From a virus (Duplodnaviria; Caudoviricetes), in the IMG/VR virus record IMGVR_UViG_3300037780_000085, positions 1-42,427 of that record: DNA of 42,427 nt; one strand, given 5' to 3'. The notes beneath the pieces were generated by a model. The model worked only from the letters and a program-made list of their open reading frames with translations, ran no database searches and was not told where the DNA came from. Each line of letters opens with the position of its first letter. The first letter of the stretch is position 1. The translations under genes were made by a program, and so were the position numbers. Positions 5,625-39,910 of this stretch are shown here, one piece after another.

Positions 5625-5699
5625 TGGTGTCGCTGGAGAGATTCGAACACACAACCCTCGGATTTAATCCGATACTCTATTTAGTTGAGCTACAGAGGC
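5625..5699 (-). pseudogene. degenerate tRNA-like sequence
   Basis: GCCTCTG-TAGCTC..GAGT, TTCGAAT and ACCA end present, but 2 acceptor mismatches, 2 T-stem mismatches and only a 5-nt anticodon loop (TCGGA-TTAAA-TCCGA). Confidence 0.6.
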
Positions 5700-5740: not shown

Positions 5741-6322
5741 ATGAAAATAAATGAATTAATTGGTTTTAAAAAAGACACCGCTTATCAAGCAGCAGTTGAC
5801 ATGGACTCAGACCCTGACGAAGGATATACAGCTTATAGTAAAAATAGTGTAGATCCTATCGTTTCTAGATTAGAATCTTTAGGTTGGAATTTAATCGGTA
5901 AAGGGTATGAAGCTTTGGTTTTTGCTAATACAAATAAAAGCTACGTAATTAAACTTTTTATTCCTTGGGGTAATAGTGTAGATTTTTTAAAATTTATTAT
6001 AAACAATCAATCTAATCCTCATGTTCCTAAACTTAGGGGTAAGCCTGTTAAAATTAAACCCGGGTCTTCAGTTTACATAGCAAGAATGGAAAGACTGGCT
6101 CCTATTAGTAGCGAAACAGATCCAATTTTTTCTCAATACTTGCCATCTGACCAAAACAGTGTTTGGGACCTGTTTGAACCTAATAATGCAAAATGGATTC
6201 AAGAGAATAACCCCGAGTTATATACACTAATAAAGTTTATAAACAATTCTAAAAATGAGCCCGATCTTCATTTAGAAAATATAATGAAGCGTAGAAACAC
6301 TCTTGTGTTTATAGATTTTTAA
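5741..6322 (+). CDS. protein-kinase-like fold protein (AT-rich, late-type)
   Basis: GKGYEALV Gly loop, VIK lysine, MERL hinge, DLHLEN catalytic loop, IDF; TAAATA motif just upstream. Confidence 0.7.
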   Translation: MKINELIGFKKDTAYQAAVDMDSDPDEGYTAYSKNSVDPIVSRLESLGWNLIGKGYEALVFANTNKSYVIKLFIPWGNSVDFLKFIINNQSNPHVPKLRGKPVKIKPGSSVYIARMERLAPISSETDPIFSQYLPSDQNSVWDLFEPNNAKWIQENNPELYTLIKFINNSKNEPDLHLENIMKRRNTLVFIDF

Positions 6323-6416: not shown

Positions 6417-6947
6417 TTACTCATTAATGATCTCCATTGTCAAAAGGTTTCCGTGAATATCCCACTCGGTGATGTGTGCAAAGCCTTCCTCCGCAGTGGG
6501 CGCAACATAGCGTTGCACCATGTCGTGAATAACCGGCTCGGGCAGAGTCTTGCCCTCTCGACTGTGCAAGCGCCGATTCCACTCAGCAATGTCTTCCACA
6601 GTTTTGGGCACCGCAATGCTCTCGCACACCACAGTATAGCCCGCCTGCTTCGCGCGGTTGATGATCTTGCGGCGCTTTTTCAGCCCCAGATTGGTTTGAT
6701 CCCAGATGATATCCTGTTTGGAACGAATAGCAATAGCGAGTTTTTCATTCATGAGTTTAGTAGCATAAGCAGCAAATTCAGGCCACGCTTGGTCGTAGGT
6801 GAAATTGTTCTGCGCTGCACAGCGTTCGATCACCTCATCGATGCTGTAAACGAACGCATCAGGATAAGTCTCGAGAACCCGGTGAACAAGAGTGCTCTTG
6901 CCAGCAGCAGGCAACCCCACCATCACAGTGCAAACGGGATTAGACAT
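6417..6947 (-). CDS. P-loop polynucleotide-kinase-like protein (AAA_33 type)
   Basis: VMVGLPAAGKST Walker A, IWDQTNL..R motif, RxxxR lid. Confidence 0.85.
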   Translation of the reverse strand: MSNPVCTVMVGLPAAGKSTLVHRVLETYPDAFVYSIDEVIERCAAQNNFTYDQAWPEFAAYATKLMNEKLAIAIRSKQDIIWDQTNLGLKKRRKIINRAKQAGYTVVCESIAVPKTVEDIAEWNRRLHSREGKTLPEPVIHDMVQRYVAPTAEEGFAHITEWDIHGNLLTMEIINE

Positions 6948-9098: not shown

Positions 9099-9315
9099 CA
9101 AAAGTCCTCCTCGCCTTGGTAGCGATAGTTGCGGGGACCATTTACGTCCCATGAAGATATTACCGCACGACGAACGTCCGCAATGAAATCGCAGTCTTCA
9201 TCTGACAATCCCGTTGCAGATTGGATATCATGGTCTTGCATTCCATCCATAATATCGCACAATGCATTTACAAGATCTTGATACGTTGGCATCAAAAGTC
9301 CTCCTCGCCTTGGTA
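9096..9315. repeat. 26-bp direct repeat pair flanking a 65-aa ORF
   Basis: CATCAAAAGTCCTCCTCGCCTTGGTA at 9096-9121 and 9290-9315. Confidence 0.85.
9098..9295 (-). CDS. hypothetical protein
   Basis: ORF track; ends YQGEEDF like the upstream gene. Confidence 0.6.
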   Translation of the reverse strand: MMPTYQDLVNALCDIMDGMQDHDIQSATGLSDEDCDFIADVRRAVISSWDVNGPRNYRYQGEEDF

Positions 9316-9741
9316 AACATTGAACACAAAGATACCGTTATCACGCCACATACGCACAACACGTGGCCTGTCATCAAACACCATGTCGGGCTTCTTGCCA
9401 TAGTCACGGATGATTTCGTCCAGGATTTCCTGCTTCACAATGTCATCACCGCGGAAGTCATCCGCCTTGCGCATGTAGAGCTTTTGGTATCCACTAAGAA
9501 GATTTCGAGCCAACCAATGCTCAGTTGCTTGGCGACTACGCTCATTACGACCGCTTGCGAGAACAATATCATGAATCTCTTGTTCTTGTAGTGCCCAAAA
9601 AATGGCAGCAACAGGCTCATTCAACTCGTCATTCGGGATCCCAGCATCAAACGCAGCCCAGTTCTTGGGCTTGCACCGAACATAGTCGAGACGATGCTCG
9701 ATGTTGGCCAGTGTTCCGTCAATATCAAACACAATCAGCAT
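9292..9741 (-). CDS. HAD-family polynucleotide 3'-phosphatase (T4 PNKP phosphatase domain-like)
   Basis: DIDGTLA, SGR, LYMR..D.R.D..VK, FDDR motifs. Confidence 0.88.
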   Translation of the reverse strand: MLIVFDIDGTLANIEHRLDYVRCKPKNWAAFDAGIPNDELNEPVAAIFWALQEQEIHDIVLASGRNERSRQATEHWLARNLLSGYQKLYMRKADDFRGDDIVKQEILDEIIRDYGKKPDMVFDDRPRVVRMWRDNGIFVFNVYQGEEDF

Positions 9742-12354: not shown

Positions 12355-12876
12355 CTATCTTTCATGCCATTGGCCCATGATGCTTTGAGCATTGCGCATG
12401 TGCTTGTATAGCAGTCCGTTTTCCGGATCGGTTTGAACCAATCTACGCTTGCCCAATGCAGTTTCGAAATTGTAGGCATTGTCGTCAAACAAGATGAAAT
12501 CCCTAACATCTGTGGCATGTGTGTCCAGATATTCTCTCACTTCGTCGCCGCGATCAAAGCCTCGGCGATGTATCGATTGTTCATCTGGGTCGGTTTTCCA
12601 AGGTGTTGCAAACGCTCCCCGGAATCCTGAATTACCAAATGCTGCACGAACCCAGTGTTCGATTTGAGTGCTTTTGACATCAATGAACTTCTTCCAGGTG
12701 CTCATTATCACAAACTCAGCAGGATAACGATCATGAATCCGATTCATGAAGTCAACAGCAACAGGATCAAACCGGTGCCACATGCCGTAGGTTGCTGCAT
12801 GTGCATAGTGAACACGGCTTGAGGTGAAAACACCGTCAATGTCTAGAAACACCAGATACTTGCGCTCGTTTTTCAT
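12355..12876 (-). CDS. HAD domain protein, Swiss-Army-knife RNA-repair type (HAD_SAK_2-like)
   Basis: FLDIDGV, STW, RGDEV..YL, ILFDD, VQTD...GL motifs. Confidence 0.8.
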   Translation of the reverse strand: MKNERKYLVFLDIDGVFTSSRVHYAHAATYGMWHRFDPVAVDFMNRIHDRYPAEFVIMSTWKKFIDVKSTQIEHWVRAAFGNSGFRGAFATPWKTDPDEQSIHRRGFDRGDEVREYLDTHATDVRDFILFDDNAYNFETALGKRRLVQTDPENGLLYKHMRNAQSIMGQWHER

Positions 12877-13355: not shown

Positions 13356-13460
13356 TGGTGGAGAGGGTTGGATTCGAACCAACGACGCGAAGAATTACCA
13401 GTTCTTCCGCTCTACCCAGACCATCTACAAGATTGGTGATCTTGCTGAGCTACCTTCTCC
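13356..13460 (-). tRNA. tRNA-Thr(GGT)-like with ~28-nt D-loop insertion
   Basis: GAAGAA-CTGGTAA-TTCTTC; T arm GTTGG-TTCGAAT-CCAAC; acceptor with a bulged A; ACCA end. Confidence 0.7.
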
Positions 13461-18627: not shown

Positions 18628-19673
18628 TTTGCCTAGCCTGAGATTACAGCGTAGGACGGAGTCCTTTGATAGCCGTACCCGAACCCTTGCGAGGTTGGTT
18701 AGCCCATATCCACTAAAGTCCTTGCGGATCATTTAGTATACTCCAATGGTGCCTTTTTTGGAGAGTGGCGTTTCTCTCGTCATGTGCTGCTACTCGTCCC
18801 TTGGTCTTACGTCTGCCTTGCGAGCAGTTCAACCGCGCTAACGGTTTACGTCTTCTCTCCGAACAACCACATCCGCCTTGCGAGCTTCCGTGGGCCATAT
18901 TCTGCGAACAGTATGGCATTAACCATCTTTCGCAACACACCGGGGCAGGCTTTCGCTTTTTTATGGTGCGTGGAGTAGGACTTGAACCTACAATCCTCTG
19001 TGCCTAAAACAGATGCCTTTACCAGTTTGGCCATCTACGCGAACCCACTAAGAAGTGCTGCCCCAGTTGCTCCGTATCTTGTTAGATACAGAATACAACA
19101 CTCCTCCTGTCTTTCGTCTTGCGGACTACTCAACGTCACTTCAAGTATCCGGCTCCTACACCTTCAACTCTTGTGATACTACATTGCCTTTGCTTGCAGG
19201 CTTAGACTCTGTAGTTACTGGTTGGTATTCAGTACTCGTTAGTTTGGCTGAACAGTGTTTGGGCGCCAACCCTCTTAGCACTCACCGAGTGGCTCTGTGC
19301 CTATCCTTTCGGACACTATTCCTAACTTAATACCTACCGCCTTTCTACGGACGGGATTTGCTTTCGCATACAGGCGTCGCCGTGTAGCGAGTCAAATCTA
19401 ACCCCAGCTTGTTTAGATGGACCATTGCTGGCGCCGGTTTATGGGAAACCCGGCTTTGGGACAGTTACCTGCCTTACCCTTATATGGACGCTAAACCGCC
19501 CATCTTACTGTGTTTACAACGACATACTGTTACCCTATCGTTGGACTGGTAGACATAGTGGTCAACATTGCCATCCCAGCCTATTGTCGGAAGCGTTTGG
19601 CACTGCTGTTTCACTAGGAACCACCCTAGTTACTTGGCAGTGCTACTACCCAATATGCCTGTGTAAACACAGT
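18628..19673 (-). ncRNA. GOLLD-like giant structured RNA with nested tRNA
   Basis: ~1 kb with no credible ORF, many GCAA/GAAA-capped hairpins, own promoter and boxA; 3' part GAGTAG..AAACGCCACTCTCCAAAAAAGGCAC..GTAATCTCAGGCT resembles the GOLLD 3' domain as I recall it. Confidence 0.7.
18964..19040 (-). tRNA. tRNA-Leu(TAG), short variable loop, nested in the GOLLD-like RNA
   Basis: GCGTAGA/TCCACGC-ACCA; TCTGT-TTTAGGC-ACAGA. Confidence 0.8.
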
Positions 19674-20700: not shown

Positions 20701-20775
20701 TGGTGCCTCTGACAGGAATTGAACCTGCTTGATCCGGGTTTAGAAGCCGTTGCACTACCATAGTGCTACAGAGGC
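20701..20775 (-). tRNA. tRNA with ambiguous anticodon (CTA amber or TCT Arg)
   Basis: Perfect acceptor, D and T arms; anticodon arm CGG-CTTCTAAAC-CCG. Confidence 0.7.
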
Positions 20776-23663: not shown

Positions 23664-23739
23664 TGGCACCGGTGGTAGGATTCGAACCCACGCTGACGCG
23701 GTTTTGGAGACCACCGTTCTACCCCTGAGCTACACCGAT
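23664..23739 (-). tRNA. tRNA-Trp(CCA)
   Basis: GTGGT-CTCCAAA-ACCGC; G73-CCA. Confidence 0.88.
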
Positions 23740-23803
23740 ATAATTGAAAACGAGCGGCACCGTTACCACGCAATGGGTCTGCCGTGTTATTCCGCTCGTC
23801 AAT

Positions 23804-24200
23804 GGCTCTACCCATGGGGTCCTCTGCTATGGGCGATTTAACTGAACTTCACCGCGTTCAGTACCGTAATTTAGACCCAGCCCTGCGCGACCGGGTTTTT
23901 CACTGTTCTCAAAGTCGCAGTTAGAACAGCTACATTCTGTTTGGCAACACTGTGCCAGTTGTGTGGTTGGCTCTTACTCACGACGTTGAGCGACTTAGCT
24001 GAAGCGGGCGTGTGATATCTTCAGTACCGTGATTGGCTTTCCAGCTACCTTGGGAGAGGGACTTTCTCCTTTAGCTTTACACTAGGACAGCTTTGAACTG
24101 AGAGATCCTAGCAACCAAGACTGGAAATGTGTTAGGCTCTACCCAAGGAGACGAAAGCTTTAGGCGATTCACCAGTGCCGTTAACCCCCAGCACTGTACC
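23804..24200 (-). ncRNA. three copies of an unassigned two-hairpin RNA motif
   Basis: Consensus GGTA-C[stem]G-NTRARTCG-C[stem]G-TA(A)GAGCC at 23804-23865, 23969-24028 and 24135-24200; stems differ in sequence but keep pairing. Confidence 0.65.
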
Positions 24201-24208
24201 ATGTATTT

Positions 24209-24285
24209 TGGCTCCCTACCTTGGATTCGAACCAAGCGCAAACGGATTAACAGTCCGCCGCCCCCGCCGAGAGGGCCCGCAGGGA
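24209..24285 (-). tRNA. tRNA-Asn(GTT)
   Basis: TCCCTGC/GTAGGGA-GCCA; GCGGA-CTGTTAA-TCCGT. Confidence 0.85.
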
Positions 24286-24289
24286 ATAA

Positions 24290-24453
24290 ACTCTACTTAC
24301 AACTGCTAACGTGTAGGATTTGCACCTACAAGCGGACCGTCGTCCTATTTGCTACCCACGTAGTTAAGCTGACTCGAACAGCACACCGCATCCCAACAGG
24401 CCACGGACTCGAACCGTGTTTACTTCTATTACGTTAGCATGTGTAAGTAGAGT
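24290..24453 (-). ncRNA. long-stem RNA carrying three T-arms (unassigned)
   Basis: ACTCTACTTAC/GTAAGTAGAGT plus TGCTAACGT/ACGTTAGCA stems; CACGG-TTCGAGT-CCGTG, GCTG-TTCGAGT-CAGC, GTAGG-TGCAAAT-CCTAC. Confidence 0.65.
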
Positions 24454-24559
24454 ACTATGAATACATGTTGGTGCATGTATTCCTCTACTTACTCCCACTA
24501 TCATCGACTTCAGTCTAAGCAGGTGTTGTTTGAAGCTACAGTTTTGTAGCAAAACAACC

Positions 24560-24583
24560 GTGTCTAAATTGTCAAAGAGCGTG
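24560..24583 (-). promoter_or_regulatory. boxA-like antitermination site
   Basis: CACGCTCTTTGACAATTTAGACAC. Confidence 0.7.
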
Positions 24584-24611
24584 TAAGCATTATTGCCTAC
24601 GTTGTCTAGCT

Positions 24612-24723
24612 AATATAGCACCTTGTGTTGCTATGTCAACTGTTTTTTTGCATTGCTTGGAAATCTACATGTGCGTTCCTTGCTTTGCCCTACTGTTATA
24701 CTGTGTTGTGTGTGCCTTGTCAA
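24612..24723 (-). promoter_or_regulatory. tandem sigma70-type promoters of tRNA array 2
   Basis: TTGACA-N17-TATAAC (24695-24723) and TTGACA-N16-TATATT (24612-24639). Confidence 0.7.
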
Positions 24724-24893: not shown

Positions 24894-24973
24894 TGAATTC
24901 GTTTCCTTTTTAAAATTACAAAGTTATTTATCATCTCAACAAAAAAACTGCTAAATATATGAAAGGATTGAAC

Positions 24974-25573
24974 ATGAAAATCAACGAATTAACTGGATTT
25001 AAATCTCACCCTATATATCGATTAGCACAGCAGTCTTTCAGTTTATTTGATCTAGAGAAAAAATTAGAAAAGACTGAATATGAAAAACTAAAGTTGGGCT
25101 CTGGACTGTATGCTGTGGTGTATGCCAAACCTGGTTCAGATGTAGTATATAAATTTTTTGACAAAAACGATGAAGGTTACTTGAGATATTTTAATTACGT
25201 AAAACAAAATCAAAACAATCCACATGTTCCTAAAATAATAGGAAGATTAATACGCTTAGATTTTTCTAAAAGACAAAGCACTTCCGGAAACGAATCTGTA
25301 AATGCATATATGTTAAAGTTAGAAAAACTTGAACCATTAAATTTAGATAATCCCAAGCATCTAAAAACCTATCAAAATATTGTTGCATTGTTTAATACGA
25401 TTAGAATTAATTCTTCAGATTCAACTCGTTTTGTACAAAAAATGGAAAAATCCTCCCCTCAATTGGTTGAATTGGTTTCTGATATCGATCACATGACCAG
25501 TGGATATGTAGATATTCACCCCGGTAATGTTATGGTTAGAAAAAATGGAACACCGGTGATCACTGACGTATAA
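24974..25573 (+). CDS. protein-kinase-like fold protein, paralog of 5741..6322
   Basis: MKINEL start, LGSGLYAVV, VYK, NPHVPK, LEKL, DIHPGN, TDV. Confidence 0.7.
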   Translation: MKINELTGFKSHPIYRLAQQSFSLFDLEKKLEKTEYEKLKLGSGLYAVVYAKPGSDVVYKFFDKNDEGYLRYFNYVKQNQNNPHVPKIIGRLIRLDFSKRQSTSGNESVNAYMLKLEKLEPLNLDNPKHLKTYQNIVALFNTIRINSSDSTRFVQKMEKSSPQLVELVSDIDHMTSGYVDIHPGNVMVRKNGTPVITDV

Positions 25574-29272: not shown

Positions 29273-29878
29273 TTAGAACTCAGCATCATCATCTTTTACT
29301 TTCTTTGCAATAGTCTTGTGAATACCAGGATTTACTTTCAGTACGTGAGGCATCATCTCATGTCTAATGTAGTTACGAGTATAGTGTATATCTTCGTTGC
29401 TGTCATCCTCTATCCACGGTACGTTATGCAAACGACACCACATTTCCAAATCTCTCTTACGGGTGAGGCGAAACGGACGAATCACATGATTGCGACGATA
29501 GGGAATCCATTTGCCTGTGCCGTGCAAACTGCTCCATACCCAAGTTTCTACACAATCATCCAAGTGATGACAGGTAACAACCGGCGCACCAAGAAATCTG
29601 TCTAAAAATTCATAACGCTGCTCACGCCACCATTCTTCTCTGCTAGGTCCTGGCGGAATAGTACCATGCGTTTCACCGACGGTAAGCGGAATCTGGTTCT
29701 CAGTGCAGTAGCGTTCCATAAATGCTCGGGCCTGCTCGCCGTGGGCTGTTCCGTGATCAAAATGCAATACATGTACTTGGTGGTTACGACGGAGAAAATC
29801 CAATGCTGCCATAGAATCTACCCCGCCCGAACAAGCAAGCCAAATCTTTCTAGGAAGTTTACCTTGCAGCTTGATCAA
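29273..29878 (-). CDS. tilS: tRNA(Ile)-lysidine synthase, N-terminal catalytic domain only
   Basis: SGGVDSM PP-loop, R..RY, HHLDDCVET, IRP, EDDSN, RNYIRH. Confidence 0.88.
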   Translation of the reverse strand: MIKLQGKLPRKIWLACSGGVDSMAALDFLRRNHQVHVLHFDHGTAHGEQARAFMERYCTENQIPLTVGETHGTIPPGPSREEWWREQRYEFLDRFLGAPVVTCHHLDDCVETWVWSSLHGTGKWIPYRRNHVIRPFRLTRKRDLEMWCRLHNVPWIEDDSNEDIHYTRNYIRHEMMPHVLKVNPGIHKTIAKKVKDDDAEF

Positions 29879-37259: not shown

Positions 37260-38303
37260 TCAGTTGCCTCCCTTCAAGAGAAACTTGTTAGAGATAGTTT
37301 TGAAACTGAAGCCGGGATCTTCGTTACACTTCCAAACAAGGCCTTCACGGATCTTGTGGTTGATACTCGGACCTTCTGCAAGAGCAAGCCCGGCATCAAC
37401 CGACTCAGGTGCCCGGCCCGCATTATCGAAAACAGAAACATGGTCAAGGCCACGATGTTTGCATTCCAATTGACGAGCATGGGGGCGCAGGTAAGCGTGT
37501 TCTTGAATGTCGAAGATGTCAAACACGAAGAACTTGTGCTCAGTGAATCCTTCGCGATTTCCTTGAATGCCTGGCCCCATCAATTCTCCCTGAAAGGCAA
37601 AACCATTGGGAATCCGGTCCGCAATCTTTAGAGCCATAGCAACAAGAGTGTTGTCTTTGTTCTCTTCATTGACTTTGAGTTCAAGGTTACGGCTGCAAAC
37701 ACGAAGTTCATCTTCCCAACGGAAGATAGTGCAGCTGGTGCCATCCAGTTTGAGAGTCACTTCATAAGTGACATCGCCCTTGGCAACGATTTCTTCGAAG
37801 CAGTTCTGAATACGCTCTTGATCGGTTTTAGGAATGAGGCTAGTTGGAAACACACCACGCACCTGTCCAGCAAGTTGTGGAGCAATAGGCGGTTCCCACT
37901 TCTGTACATTGAGAAGATCAGTAACATCCTCGCCTAAGTTGACTACTTTGTGACGAATGCGACCATCTTCGAGAAAAGAAACAGCATTACTGATTGCCTT
38001 CTCTGGTACAGTTTCCAGTTTTAGCAGCAATCCCTGGCTAACTTGCCCGCGCAATTTCACAGTGCGCAGACGCTCGCCTTTCACTCCATTGTATTCGCGA
38101 GGCTCAGAACCTTTGCTCAAGAAAGGAGCAAGTTCATGCGGAACCCAGCTGTCAATCTCAAGATAGACGGCAAGTTCACCTACAGCAAATTCACCTTTTT
38201 TGATTACTATTTTCCAACCATCAACGGTTGCTACCTCGATAGCGTCTGCACCTTCAATAGGCTGAATGTCAGCAATACGACGGATAGTGGCGAGTTTTCT
38301 CAT
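37260..38303 (-). CDS. RNA ligase, DRB0094 family
   Basis: N-terminal RKLATIRRI..I.PIEGADAIE OB-like domain, PKTDQERIQN, KLDGTS, CSRN, QGELMG, FDIFD, EGLVWK, SFKTISNKFLLK. Confidence 0.92.
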   Translation of the reverse strand: MRKLATIRRIADIQPIEGADAIEVATVDGWKIVIKKGEFAVGELAVYLEIDSWVPHELAPFLSKGSEPREYNGVKGERLRTVKLRGQVSQGLLLKLETVPEKAISNAVSFLEDGRIRHKVVNLGEDVTDLLNVQKWEPPIAPQLAGQVRGVFPTSLIPKTDQERIQNCFEEIVAKGDVTYEVTLKLDGTSCTIFRWEDELRVCSRNLELKVNEENKDNTLVAMALKIADRIPNGFAFQGELMGPGIQGNREGFTEHKFFVFDIFDIQEHAYLRPHARQLECKHRGLDHVSVFDNAGRAPESVDAGLALAEGPSINHKIREGLVWKCNEDPGFSFKTISNKFLLKGGN

Positions 38304-39550: not shown

Positions 39551-39910
39551 TTAGGCATTGATGTATTCCTTCAAAAAGTTTTCCATGTAGCGGAGAATAT
39601 TCTCCGCACCCACCGGGTTCATGCTATGCACATGATAGCTGAAGCCTTCTGGGATGTCGAGAGCATTGTCCATCACATAATCACAGAACCAGCGAGCAAA
39701 GGTGTAGCCAGTTTTTTCACCATCGCCGATGATGTAGTGAGCATCCGCAAGGTCGTGGTCGAAGTGAATTTGGTAGGGGATACCGTAGCGATGGATATAC
39801 CAAACAGCGTCATCCATTGAGCGAGCAATGATCACTAGATCTTTCTTGCTGAATGCTATTTTAGCATCAACGGGAAATCGTATGTCATCCAAAAACAAAA
39901 TCCACCGCAT
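39551..39910 (-). CDS. cyclic-phosphate-processing receiver-like domain protein
   Basis: LFLDDIR, FDHDL, TGY, HSMNPVG motifs. Confidence 0.8.
   Translation of the reverse strand: MRWILFLDDIRFPVDAKIAFSKKDLVIIARSMDDAVWYIHRYGIPYQIHFDHDLADAHYIIGDGEKTGYTFARWFCDYVMDNALDIPEGFSYHVHSMNPVGAENILRYMENFLKEYINA

Follow-up and report, generated by a model that had tools for sequence, protein, structure and literature searches.

A compact RNA outside Rfam, predicted to fold as a three-way junction, recurs in the tRNA arrays of large aquatic phages and resembles the junction of the ribosomal GTPase centre

What is the RNA that stands three times over between two tRNA genes of a phage, and what might it do there? 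The question is raised by IMGVR_UViG_3300037780_000085, of which the whole stretch analysed here (the window, 42,427 nt) holds 28 tRNA genes, every one on the minus strand. A prediction made from the letters alone (the original prediction) had described a triplicated RNA between tRNA-Asn and tRNA-Trp. That placement is borne out: tRNA-Asn(GUU) lies at 24209-24285 (-), 8 nt upstream of copy 1, and tRNA-Trp(CCA) at 23664-23739 (-), 64 nt downstream of copy 3, and the quoted stems and junctions of all three copies were found on the minus strand between them. (The tRNA-Asn gene at 24209-24285 has an unusual, GC-rich D arm; ARAGORN finds it, and the Rfam tRNA model does not.) A sigma-70-type promoter-like site at 24612-24639 (-), a consensus match only (11/12, with an extended -10), stands upstream of a structured leader (element E, below), tRNA-Asn, the three copies and the later tRNAs.

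The copies share one order of parts. The core of copy 1 (24135-24200, -; 42.8 bits with the covariance model described below) is the deviant one, and reads GGU, the 5' strand of the closing helix P1 (24200-24198), an unpaired A (24197), the P2 hairpin (24196-24173), G-UGA-A (24172-24168) where a lone-pair triloop is expected, UC (24167-24166), G (24165), the P3b hairpin (24164-24142), UA (24141-24140), GA (24139-24138) and GCC (24137-24135), and is followed by a 3' tail of the form N4-R-C-A-U with its C at +6 (24127-24134, -). Copy 2 (23969-24028, -; 53.4 bits) consists of GGUA (24028-24025), P2 (24024-23999), a C-UAA-G lone-pair triloop (23998-23994), UC-G (23993-23991), P3b (23990-23977), UAA (23976-23974) and GA-GCC (23973-23969), with a tail at 23961-23968 (-), C at +6. 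Copy 3 (23804-23865, -; 54.7 bits) runs through GGUA (23865-23862), P2 (23861-23842), a U-UAA-A lone-pair triloop (23841-23837), UC-G (23836-23834), P3b (23833-23811), UA (23810-23809) and GA-GCC (23808-23804), and its tail (23796-23803, -; C at +6) overlaps the start of element B. A three-block pattern matches the window three times, compared with a mean of 0.00 and a maximum of 0 in 100 dinucleotide shuffles, and the covariance model, to which these copies contributed, detects no fourth copy in the window, the next-best score being 8 bits versus 43-55 for the copies. The description as triplicated thus stands as regards the three copies, but not as regards a single triplicated RNA, since other RNA elements stand between them; one long RNA of 469 nt was likewise rejected, because the copies and elements B and D also occur apart and are swapped.

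The motif is not confined to this phage. Searching the 469-nt region against 50,697 phage records with blastn gave just three chance matches at E 6, and homologues were instead collected with patterns. A loose pattern that fixed only GGTAC, ARTCGC and GTAGAGCC was found in at least 120 viral loci; it demanded neither the YUAARUCG junction nor the stems, and 33 matches in 30 of those loci have that junction, with both stems in all but one, the remaining matches looking like chance. A tighter scan gave 50 loci, in 41 of which the model scores 28 bits or more; the other nine are exactly the nine without any tRNA. A metagenome scan added at least 121 loci, and a scan of 185,579 prokaryote genomes gave three matches, all in metagenome bins on contigs of 743-3149 nt, which are probably binned phage fragments. 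Two further loose scans reached 13 of 64 and 10 of 64 parts and yielded mostly chance matches, their use lying in the 5' variants that they revealed. The matches were judged with a covariance model (R1; 34 sequences, structure set by hand) at a cut-off of 28 bits, which kept 63/67, 81/105, 19/23 and 38/46 matches as well as the three window copies; the scan that gave 19/23, of which 100 loci were searched, added little. The resulting family comprises at least 119 distinct cores from 131 loci in 52 subfamilies, 45-96 nt long (median 55), with 1-4 copies per record (32 records). The absence of homologues or covariation, which the original prediction had named as grounds for giving it up, is thus not what was found.

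Its carriers, as far as they were checked, are large. Four complete carriers (195, 195, 283 and 519 kb) all encode a T4-type Gp23 capsid protein and are T4-like phages; a fifth, half-complete carrier has no match to that protein. The closest cultured capsids are those of the Sinorhizobium phages phiM12 (68%) and Phosso (77%), and sequencing runs in which the window's region occurs carry the labels pond, marine, aquatic, estuary, seawater or marsh. In 10 cultured phages, selected for having the closest RNA ligase, GOLLD region or capsid protein, R1 gave no real match; one match of 14 bits was rejected, being without tRNAs. Rfam 15 reports nothing over the three copies at gathering score or at E<=10, and in 20 homologue loci no family fits the motif among the best 150 of 176 matches, so that the motif falls outside Rfam on these searches, a check that the original prediction had proposed. 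No description of the motif was found in the literature searched, where two of six words taken from the motif never occur together in one paper, although it may be among the 8,495 unannotated candidates of an IMG/VR candidate catalogue (PMC10690425). The motif is a well-supported RNA family absent from Rfam, in an already known kind of locus.

The homologues support a functional three-way junction with a conserved core and covarying stems, as originally proposed. In the fitted structure 95.5% of cells are paired and 11 of 15 pairs show two-sided changes, a result reached in 0 of 500 shuffles and compared with 19-42% in slid controls, the structure having been set by the authors on the same sequences; 90 distinct metagenome rows fitted to the model give 93.2% paired, again with two-sided changes in 11 of 15 pairs. 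The closing helix P1 has three base pairs (GGU/GCC), and P3a (UC/GA) adjoins it with zero spacer. The first two pairs of P1, G1-C and G2-C, are invariant (119/119 each), and covariation therefore cannot prove them; the third is U·G in 116 cores, C-G in two (from two subfamilies) and C·A in one. Position 4, between P1 and P2, is A in 116, C in two and G in one. P2 begins with C-G in 115/119 and continues with pairs that covary freely below a loop of any length, while P3a has U-A as its first pair in 114 cores, A-U in three (three subfamilies) and U·G in two, with C-G as its second in 118. The small loop before P3b is mostly G opposite UA (95 cores), its R being G in 102, A in eight and absent in nine; P3b carries a free loop, and the outer loops of the motif differ in length and sequence. 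What had been described as conserved single-stranded junctions is accordingly a conserved core, but one that is largely paired (GGU/GCC, UC/GA and the Y·R lone pair).

The most distinctive part of the core is the five-base Y-UAA-R, whose outer bases are U·A in 59 cores, C·G in 58, U·G in one and G·A in one (copy 1 of the window, the sole such case), and never A-U or G-C; UAA itself is kept in 117/119. Both U·A and C·G occur inside each of three subfamilies, and the swap has therefore happened repeatedly. Because most cores came from patterns that fix these blocks, the blocks were freed in turn. With the 5' block freed, 21 of 21 members keep GG (18 GGUA, and one each of GGUC, GGUG and GGCA), one row being mis-parsed, though a known member. 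With the junction freed, 15 of 16 tRNA-linked members keep YUAAR and one has UGAAG (one row without a tRNA was left out as chance), and with the 3' block partly freed 18 of 18 keep G-CC, with one A-U swap. Folding predictions speak against the model: taken one by one, the copies are no better folded than their shuffles (z -0.75 to +0.95), and predicted pair probabilities average 0.53 in P1 and 0.16 in P3a.

A junction of this design is known from the ribosome. In the type C junction of H42-H44 of 23S rRNA, where H42 stacks on H44, the strand linking H43 to H44 folds into a mini-hairpin. A single trans Watson-Crick pair closes it (U1082-A1086 in E. coli, C1186-G1190 in H. marismortui), and its two A's dock into the neighbouring helix, according to the relevant part of PMC2952862. 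The phage motif arranges its parts likewise, with a closing helix, a hairpin, a five-base lone-pair loop and a second hairpin in that order, and has the same Y-UAA-R with exchange of U·A and C·G, and its G-C pairs are predicted to be placed so as to receive the two A's. By analogy with that precedent and from the covariation, P1 (G-C, G-C, U·G) would stack on P3a (U-A, C-G) and P2 on the trans Watson-Crick Y·R pair that closes UAA, while the two A's of UAA would sit in the minor groove that the invariant G-C pairs form, with the R/YA loop probably packing onto the first pairs of P2. Such a fold would account for nearly all invariant bases of the core. In contrast to the rRNA junction, the motif is a free-standing phage unit of ~55 nt with a closing helix of only 3 bp, no kink-turn, variable outer loops in place of those of H43 and H44, an extra R/YA loop and a conserved 3' tail. 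Membership in the rRNA GTPase centre itself was rejected, as distal loops of the H43/H44 type vary and R1 does not score E. coli 23S. A lone-pair triloop also organises the junction of a picornavirus IRES (PMC6689051); junctions built around such a triloop are a general module, and the likeness to rRNA may therefore be one of architecture and not of mimicry.

One specific function to weigh is that of a decoy which would titrate L10(L12)4, the ribosomal stalk complex, or else factors recognizing the GTPase centre. The order of the junction and the UAA loop recur in the rplJ leader as well as in H42-H44: the leader has a hairpin followed by an unpaired UAA above a G-C helix, with two unpaired adenosines, which the motif shares, and a leader transcript can titrate L10(L12)4 (PMC4538822). 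The window, moreover, encodes a protein of 130 aa with an L7/L12 C-terminal domain (840-1232, -; domain match 35 bits), and L12-domain matches are found in 2/5 near-complete carriers. However, the L10(L12)4 site depends on a kink-turn in addition to its unpaired A's, as stated in sections of PMC3616713 and PMC4538822, and neither a kink-turn nor a helix is found below P1, which is only 3 bp long with unpaired flanks; L10(L12)4, the best partner candidate for a decoy, fails for that reason. Unlike the rplJ leader, the motif does not stand upstream of rplJL and has a full second hairpin, its loops equivalent to those of H43 and H44 are unconserved, the L12 domain occurs in just 2/32 records, and the L12-like protein of the window is without a match in the 5 near-complete carriers. 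Taken with the lack of an R1 score for the E. coli junction or leader, these points make a stalk decoy very improbable.

One conserved feature lies outside the junction. The 3' tail (N4-R-C-A-U) is unpaired, and its C stands at +6 in 107/119 cores and at +5 or +6 in 114/119; it is found in 43/45 subfamilies, and at +6 both in cores with a close downstream tRNA (49/52) and in those without one (58/67). Three of the 119 cores came from a pattern that requires the tail C, and 91 of 103 cores collected without a tail constraint have it. Among 756 tRNA trailers, by comparison, C makes up 1-20% at any position. The tail covaries with none of the core positions tested, and pairing of the tail with a loop is also absent. 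On the other side of the core, 112/119 leaders have a pyrimidine at -1, resembling tRNA leaders (661/756), and C-A, which recurs in the tail, occupies -3/-2 in 51/119 motif leaders versus 60/756 tRNA leaders. Pairing of leader with tail, which would extend P1, scores 2.95 versus 3.05 for swapped partners (the flanks are G-poor); a pseudoknot of the core with leader or tail pairs no better than swapped partners do, and loop-loop pairing is marginal (3.38 versus 3.21, 5/200). An encoded CCA end, as in a tRNA-like RNA, was rejected, as A follows the terminal CC in 82/119 cores (69%), the background level of 547/756 tRNA trailers (72%). An anticodon-loop decoy in P2 was not adopted (27/103 versus 19.2±3.8 in shuffles, 13/500; 9/45 subfamilies only).

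The conserved tail C is the main support for reading the motif as a ribozyme or as a nuclease signal. As a self-cleaving ribozyme of an undescribed class, the RNA would cut either within the tail that follows it, the likeliest site lying after the conserved C, or at its 5' end, and so break up the long tRNA transcript. Its small size, its conserved core with free outer hairpins and its several diverged copies per genome are what such a ribozyme would have; its tail C, unlike anything in tRNA trailers, keeps a fixed register with or without a close downstream tRNA. The window also encodes two RNA ligases and a split polynucleotide kinase and phosphatase, part of a minus-strand group of RNA repair and tRNA genes that further comprises HAD_SAK_2, cREC and a TilS-like PP-loop protein (1706-2848, 6417-6947, 9292-9741, 12355-12876, 37260-38303, 39551-39910 and 29273-29878). 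Against a cutter stand the junction fold, which would explain most invariant bases, the variation at other unpaired positions (position 4 and R), a spacing from tRNA ends that is not constant, copies set back to back at 8-12 nt, from which a cutter would gain little, and the finding of RtcB in 0/5 near-complete carriers. On this balance self-cleavage, the main alternative to the reading preferred below, is unlikely, though it deserves serious weight, and the same doubt attaches to the fuller claim of a ribozyme class built on the GTPase-centre fold that cuts at or with the tail C and breaks up the tRNA operons of large aquatic phages.

The known self-cleaving cores give this reading no help. 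The hammerhead is a three-way junction whose stems III and I are separated by a single nucleotide, and its cleavage triplet follows the rule NUH. The motif resembles a type III hammerhead in having one nucleotide between closing stem and first hairpin, usually within the triplet GUA; at this site GUA or GUC occurs in 115/119 cores, GCA in three and GUG in one. The hammerhead core CUGANGA/GAAA, however, was found in 0/119 on both strands and the twister loop likewise in 0/119, while loose hairpin-ribozyme and pistol words occur in only 14/119 and 11/119, with no Rfam match. The nested double pseudoknot of HDV and theta leaves no signal beyond the marginal loop-loop excess, its L3 word occurring in 1/119. 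The original prediction had set the motif apart from hammerhead, twister, pistol and HDV/theta cores, and the descriptor tests on 119 cores agree. Two other partial likenesses were set aside: the GAGCC helix is reminiscent of domain 5 of group II introns, and GGU/RCC of the RNase P-tRNA pairing, but each is a five-letter coincidence, and swaps of U-A to A-U also speak against the former.

Theta ribozymes deserve a closer comparison, since they occupy the same niche; as characterized in the portion of PMC10879173 that bears on the point, they are, like the motif, about 50-60 nt long, phage-specific, tRNA-associated and present several times per genome. In HDV-like and theta ribozymes an invariant catalytic C comes first after the P4-like hairpin, and its change to U inactivates (PMC10879173, same portion), whereas the matching position of the motif is U in 60 cores, C in 58 and G in one. 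Of theta ribozymes, 77% have their 5' end within 1 nt of a tRNA 3' end, and 4.5% of theta-linked tRNAs encode CCA (PMC10879173, same portion), as compared with 0/103 motif cores within 1 nt of a tRNA 3' end (9/103 within 5 nt) and 735/786 nearby tRNAs that encode CCA. The motif thus differs from theta in having no double pseudoknot, no invariant C and no flush junction with tRNA 3' ends, and it comes from aquatic phages, theta being described from gut phages (PMC10879173, same portion). A processing ribozyme in the sense of a cutter of tRNA 3' ends, one of the roles first suggested, is weakened accordingly.

For 116 of 119 cores the nearest tRNA is on the same strand, and for the other three no tRNA is present in the fetched DNA; in 55/103 an upstream tRNA lies 2-13 nt away, and in 52/103 a downstream tRNA 9-17 nt away. 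Spacers between tRNAs are mostly 4-8 nt, so that the 5' side of the motif is ordinary and its 3' side about 4-5 nt longer. These relations raise the alternative of a cis-acting processing or protection signal, whose fold and tail would be read by a host or phage nuclease, or would block an exonuclease, and so shape how neighbouring tRNAs and small RNAs mature. It is favoured by the shared strand (116/116 cores with a nearby tRNA), by the identity of the close upstream tRNA, which is Asn(GUU) in 33/55, and by the C-A enriched in leaders and repeated in the tail. Yet most tRNAs of the arrays have no adjoining copy, the distances are those of ordinary spacers, and the Asn link could come from inheritance, or else from recombination at GAGCC, the 3' word in common. 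Strains, moreover, lose or replace whole copies at their joints while the flanking tRNAs stay: copy 1 is replaced by 283 other letters in contigs from three of four DNA runs, and 23737-23962 (copy 3 with elements B and F) is skipped by one DNA-run contig, of which the shorter side is 30 letters, while 23747-23991 is covered in three other DNA runs with 0-2 differences. A cis signal is accordingly quite unlikely.

Eleven pairs of copies are directly in tandem, 8-12 nt apart and 23-65% alike. Such pairs, the ordinary spacer distances and the cassette swaps indicate that each copy behaves as its own small RNA gene. No protein family tracks the motif as a partner gene among 1273 ORFs from 62 loci; the commonest neighbouring family is a homing endonuclease (17/62 loci). 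The cassette behaviour, the diverged tandem copies and a core explained by architecture favour a product that acts by dosage over one that cuts. The reading that we tentatively prefer, with confidence somewhat short of even, is therefore that of an independent small RNA which would be freed from the tRNA transcript and serve as a decoy by binding a host protein, a role that the original prediction had also named. Each copy would be a conserved unit of 45-96 nt, predicted to form a compact three-way junction of the rRNA GTPase-centre type and probably cut from the tRNA transcript, perhaps by the tRNA-processing nucleases of the host. Four contig sets from RNA runs, in which the presence of this phage is not established, do not span the copies and carry no information on expression. 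With outer loops so free to vary, the junction, P1 and the unpaired 3' tail (N4-R-C-A) would form the working face, and the partner may be a translation protein or an anti-phage protein that targets RNA; the tail C is not explained by this decoy model. No Ro60/TROVE gene, as would suit an RNA of the Y RNA or YrlA type, was found in the 5 near-complete carriers (0/5). A conserved junction, a free periphery and several copies would also suit an aptamer acting as a sink for some small signalling molecule, for example a nucleotide messenger of anti-phage defence, but the motif has no riboswitch match and its fold would account for the invariant bases, leaving no evident pocket; the ligand sponge of the original prediction thus finds no support, and an aptamer is extremely unlikely.

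The motif is small enough to be synthesized and tested in days. Self-cleavage would make of it a new class of ribozyme whose fold is already familiar from the ribosome; binding to a host protein would mean that a phage RNA has turned the stalk-base junction into a decoy, and under either reading it is the smallest free-standing natural version of the GTPase-centre junction found in this analysis. Its setting has precedents in T4 RNAC and RNAD, non-tRNA RNAs of a phage tRNA region with unknown roles (in the part of PMC3014915 concerned), and in the GOLLD and ROOL RNAs that sit near tRNA islands (likewise from part of PMC12286853). With RNAC and RNAD the likeness is one of location and not a claim of sequence homology; GOLLD and ROOL are also non-tRNA RNAs of such regions, from which the motif differs in being much smaller, multi-copy and without an Rfam match. 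Together with elements B-E, it indicates that large aquatic phages keep several undescribed RNA genes among their arrayed tRNAs, a question that RNAC and RNAD had left open.

Element D (24034-24127, -; fold z -2.1, no Rfam match) has an acceptor-like outer stem ending in G-CCA and a conserved inner hairpin, with seven distinct blastn homologues in 786 loci (e.g. L328:505-601, L717:1266-1361 and L165:8230-8326); it constitutes a second uncatalogued family, and its junction strand contains UAA. Between copies 2 and 3 lies element F (23868-23962, -; fold z -2.9), three hairpins with a possible pseudoknot and no blastn homologue in the 786 loci. Element B (23745-23803, -), a stem with a conserved inner loop, is a third uncatalogued family with seven distinct blastn homologues (among them L343:372-415 and L306:3134-3169); it often stands directly downstream of the motif and overlaps the tail, yet the tail C stays in register. 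Ahead of tRNA-Asn stands element E (24288-24600, -; no Rfam match), a long structured leader that is conserved and has a T-arm and an acceptor-like end; pieces of it are found by blastn in many motif loci, and contigs similar to it occur in two marine RNA runs, which is not proof of transcription. A further element, motif C (~37 nt, a covarying hairpin followed by GUAAG), stands directly upstream of the motif in 19 loci, 13 of them distinct (e.g. L126 near 6070-6110, -; L138 near 5810-5850, +; L154 near 5960-5995, +), and was not seen upstream of the three window copies.

Elsewhere in the window, a tRNA with a CUA anticodon (amber suppressor type) lies at 20701-20775 (-), and despite it TAG is the stop of five of 41 long ORFs under the standard code. 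Rfam, and not ARAGORN, recognizes tRNA-like genes at 5628-5699 and 13359-13459 (-), one of them with an enlarged D arm. ORFs 5741-6322 and 24959-25573 (+) resemble the T7 protein kinase family and are the only long annotated plus-strand ORFs among those scanned. A GOLLD RNA is present at 18635-19106 (-; 187.8 bits) with tRNA-Leu(UAG) embedded in its linker (18964-19040), and in the roseophages MD18 and DSS3P8 the matching stretch encloses a tRNA-Arg.
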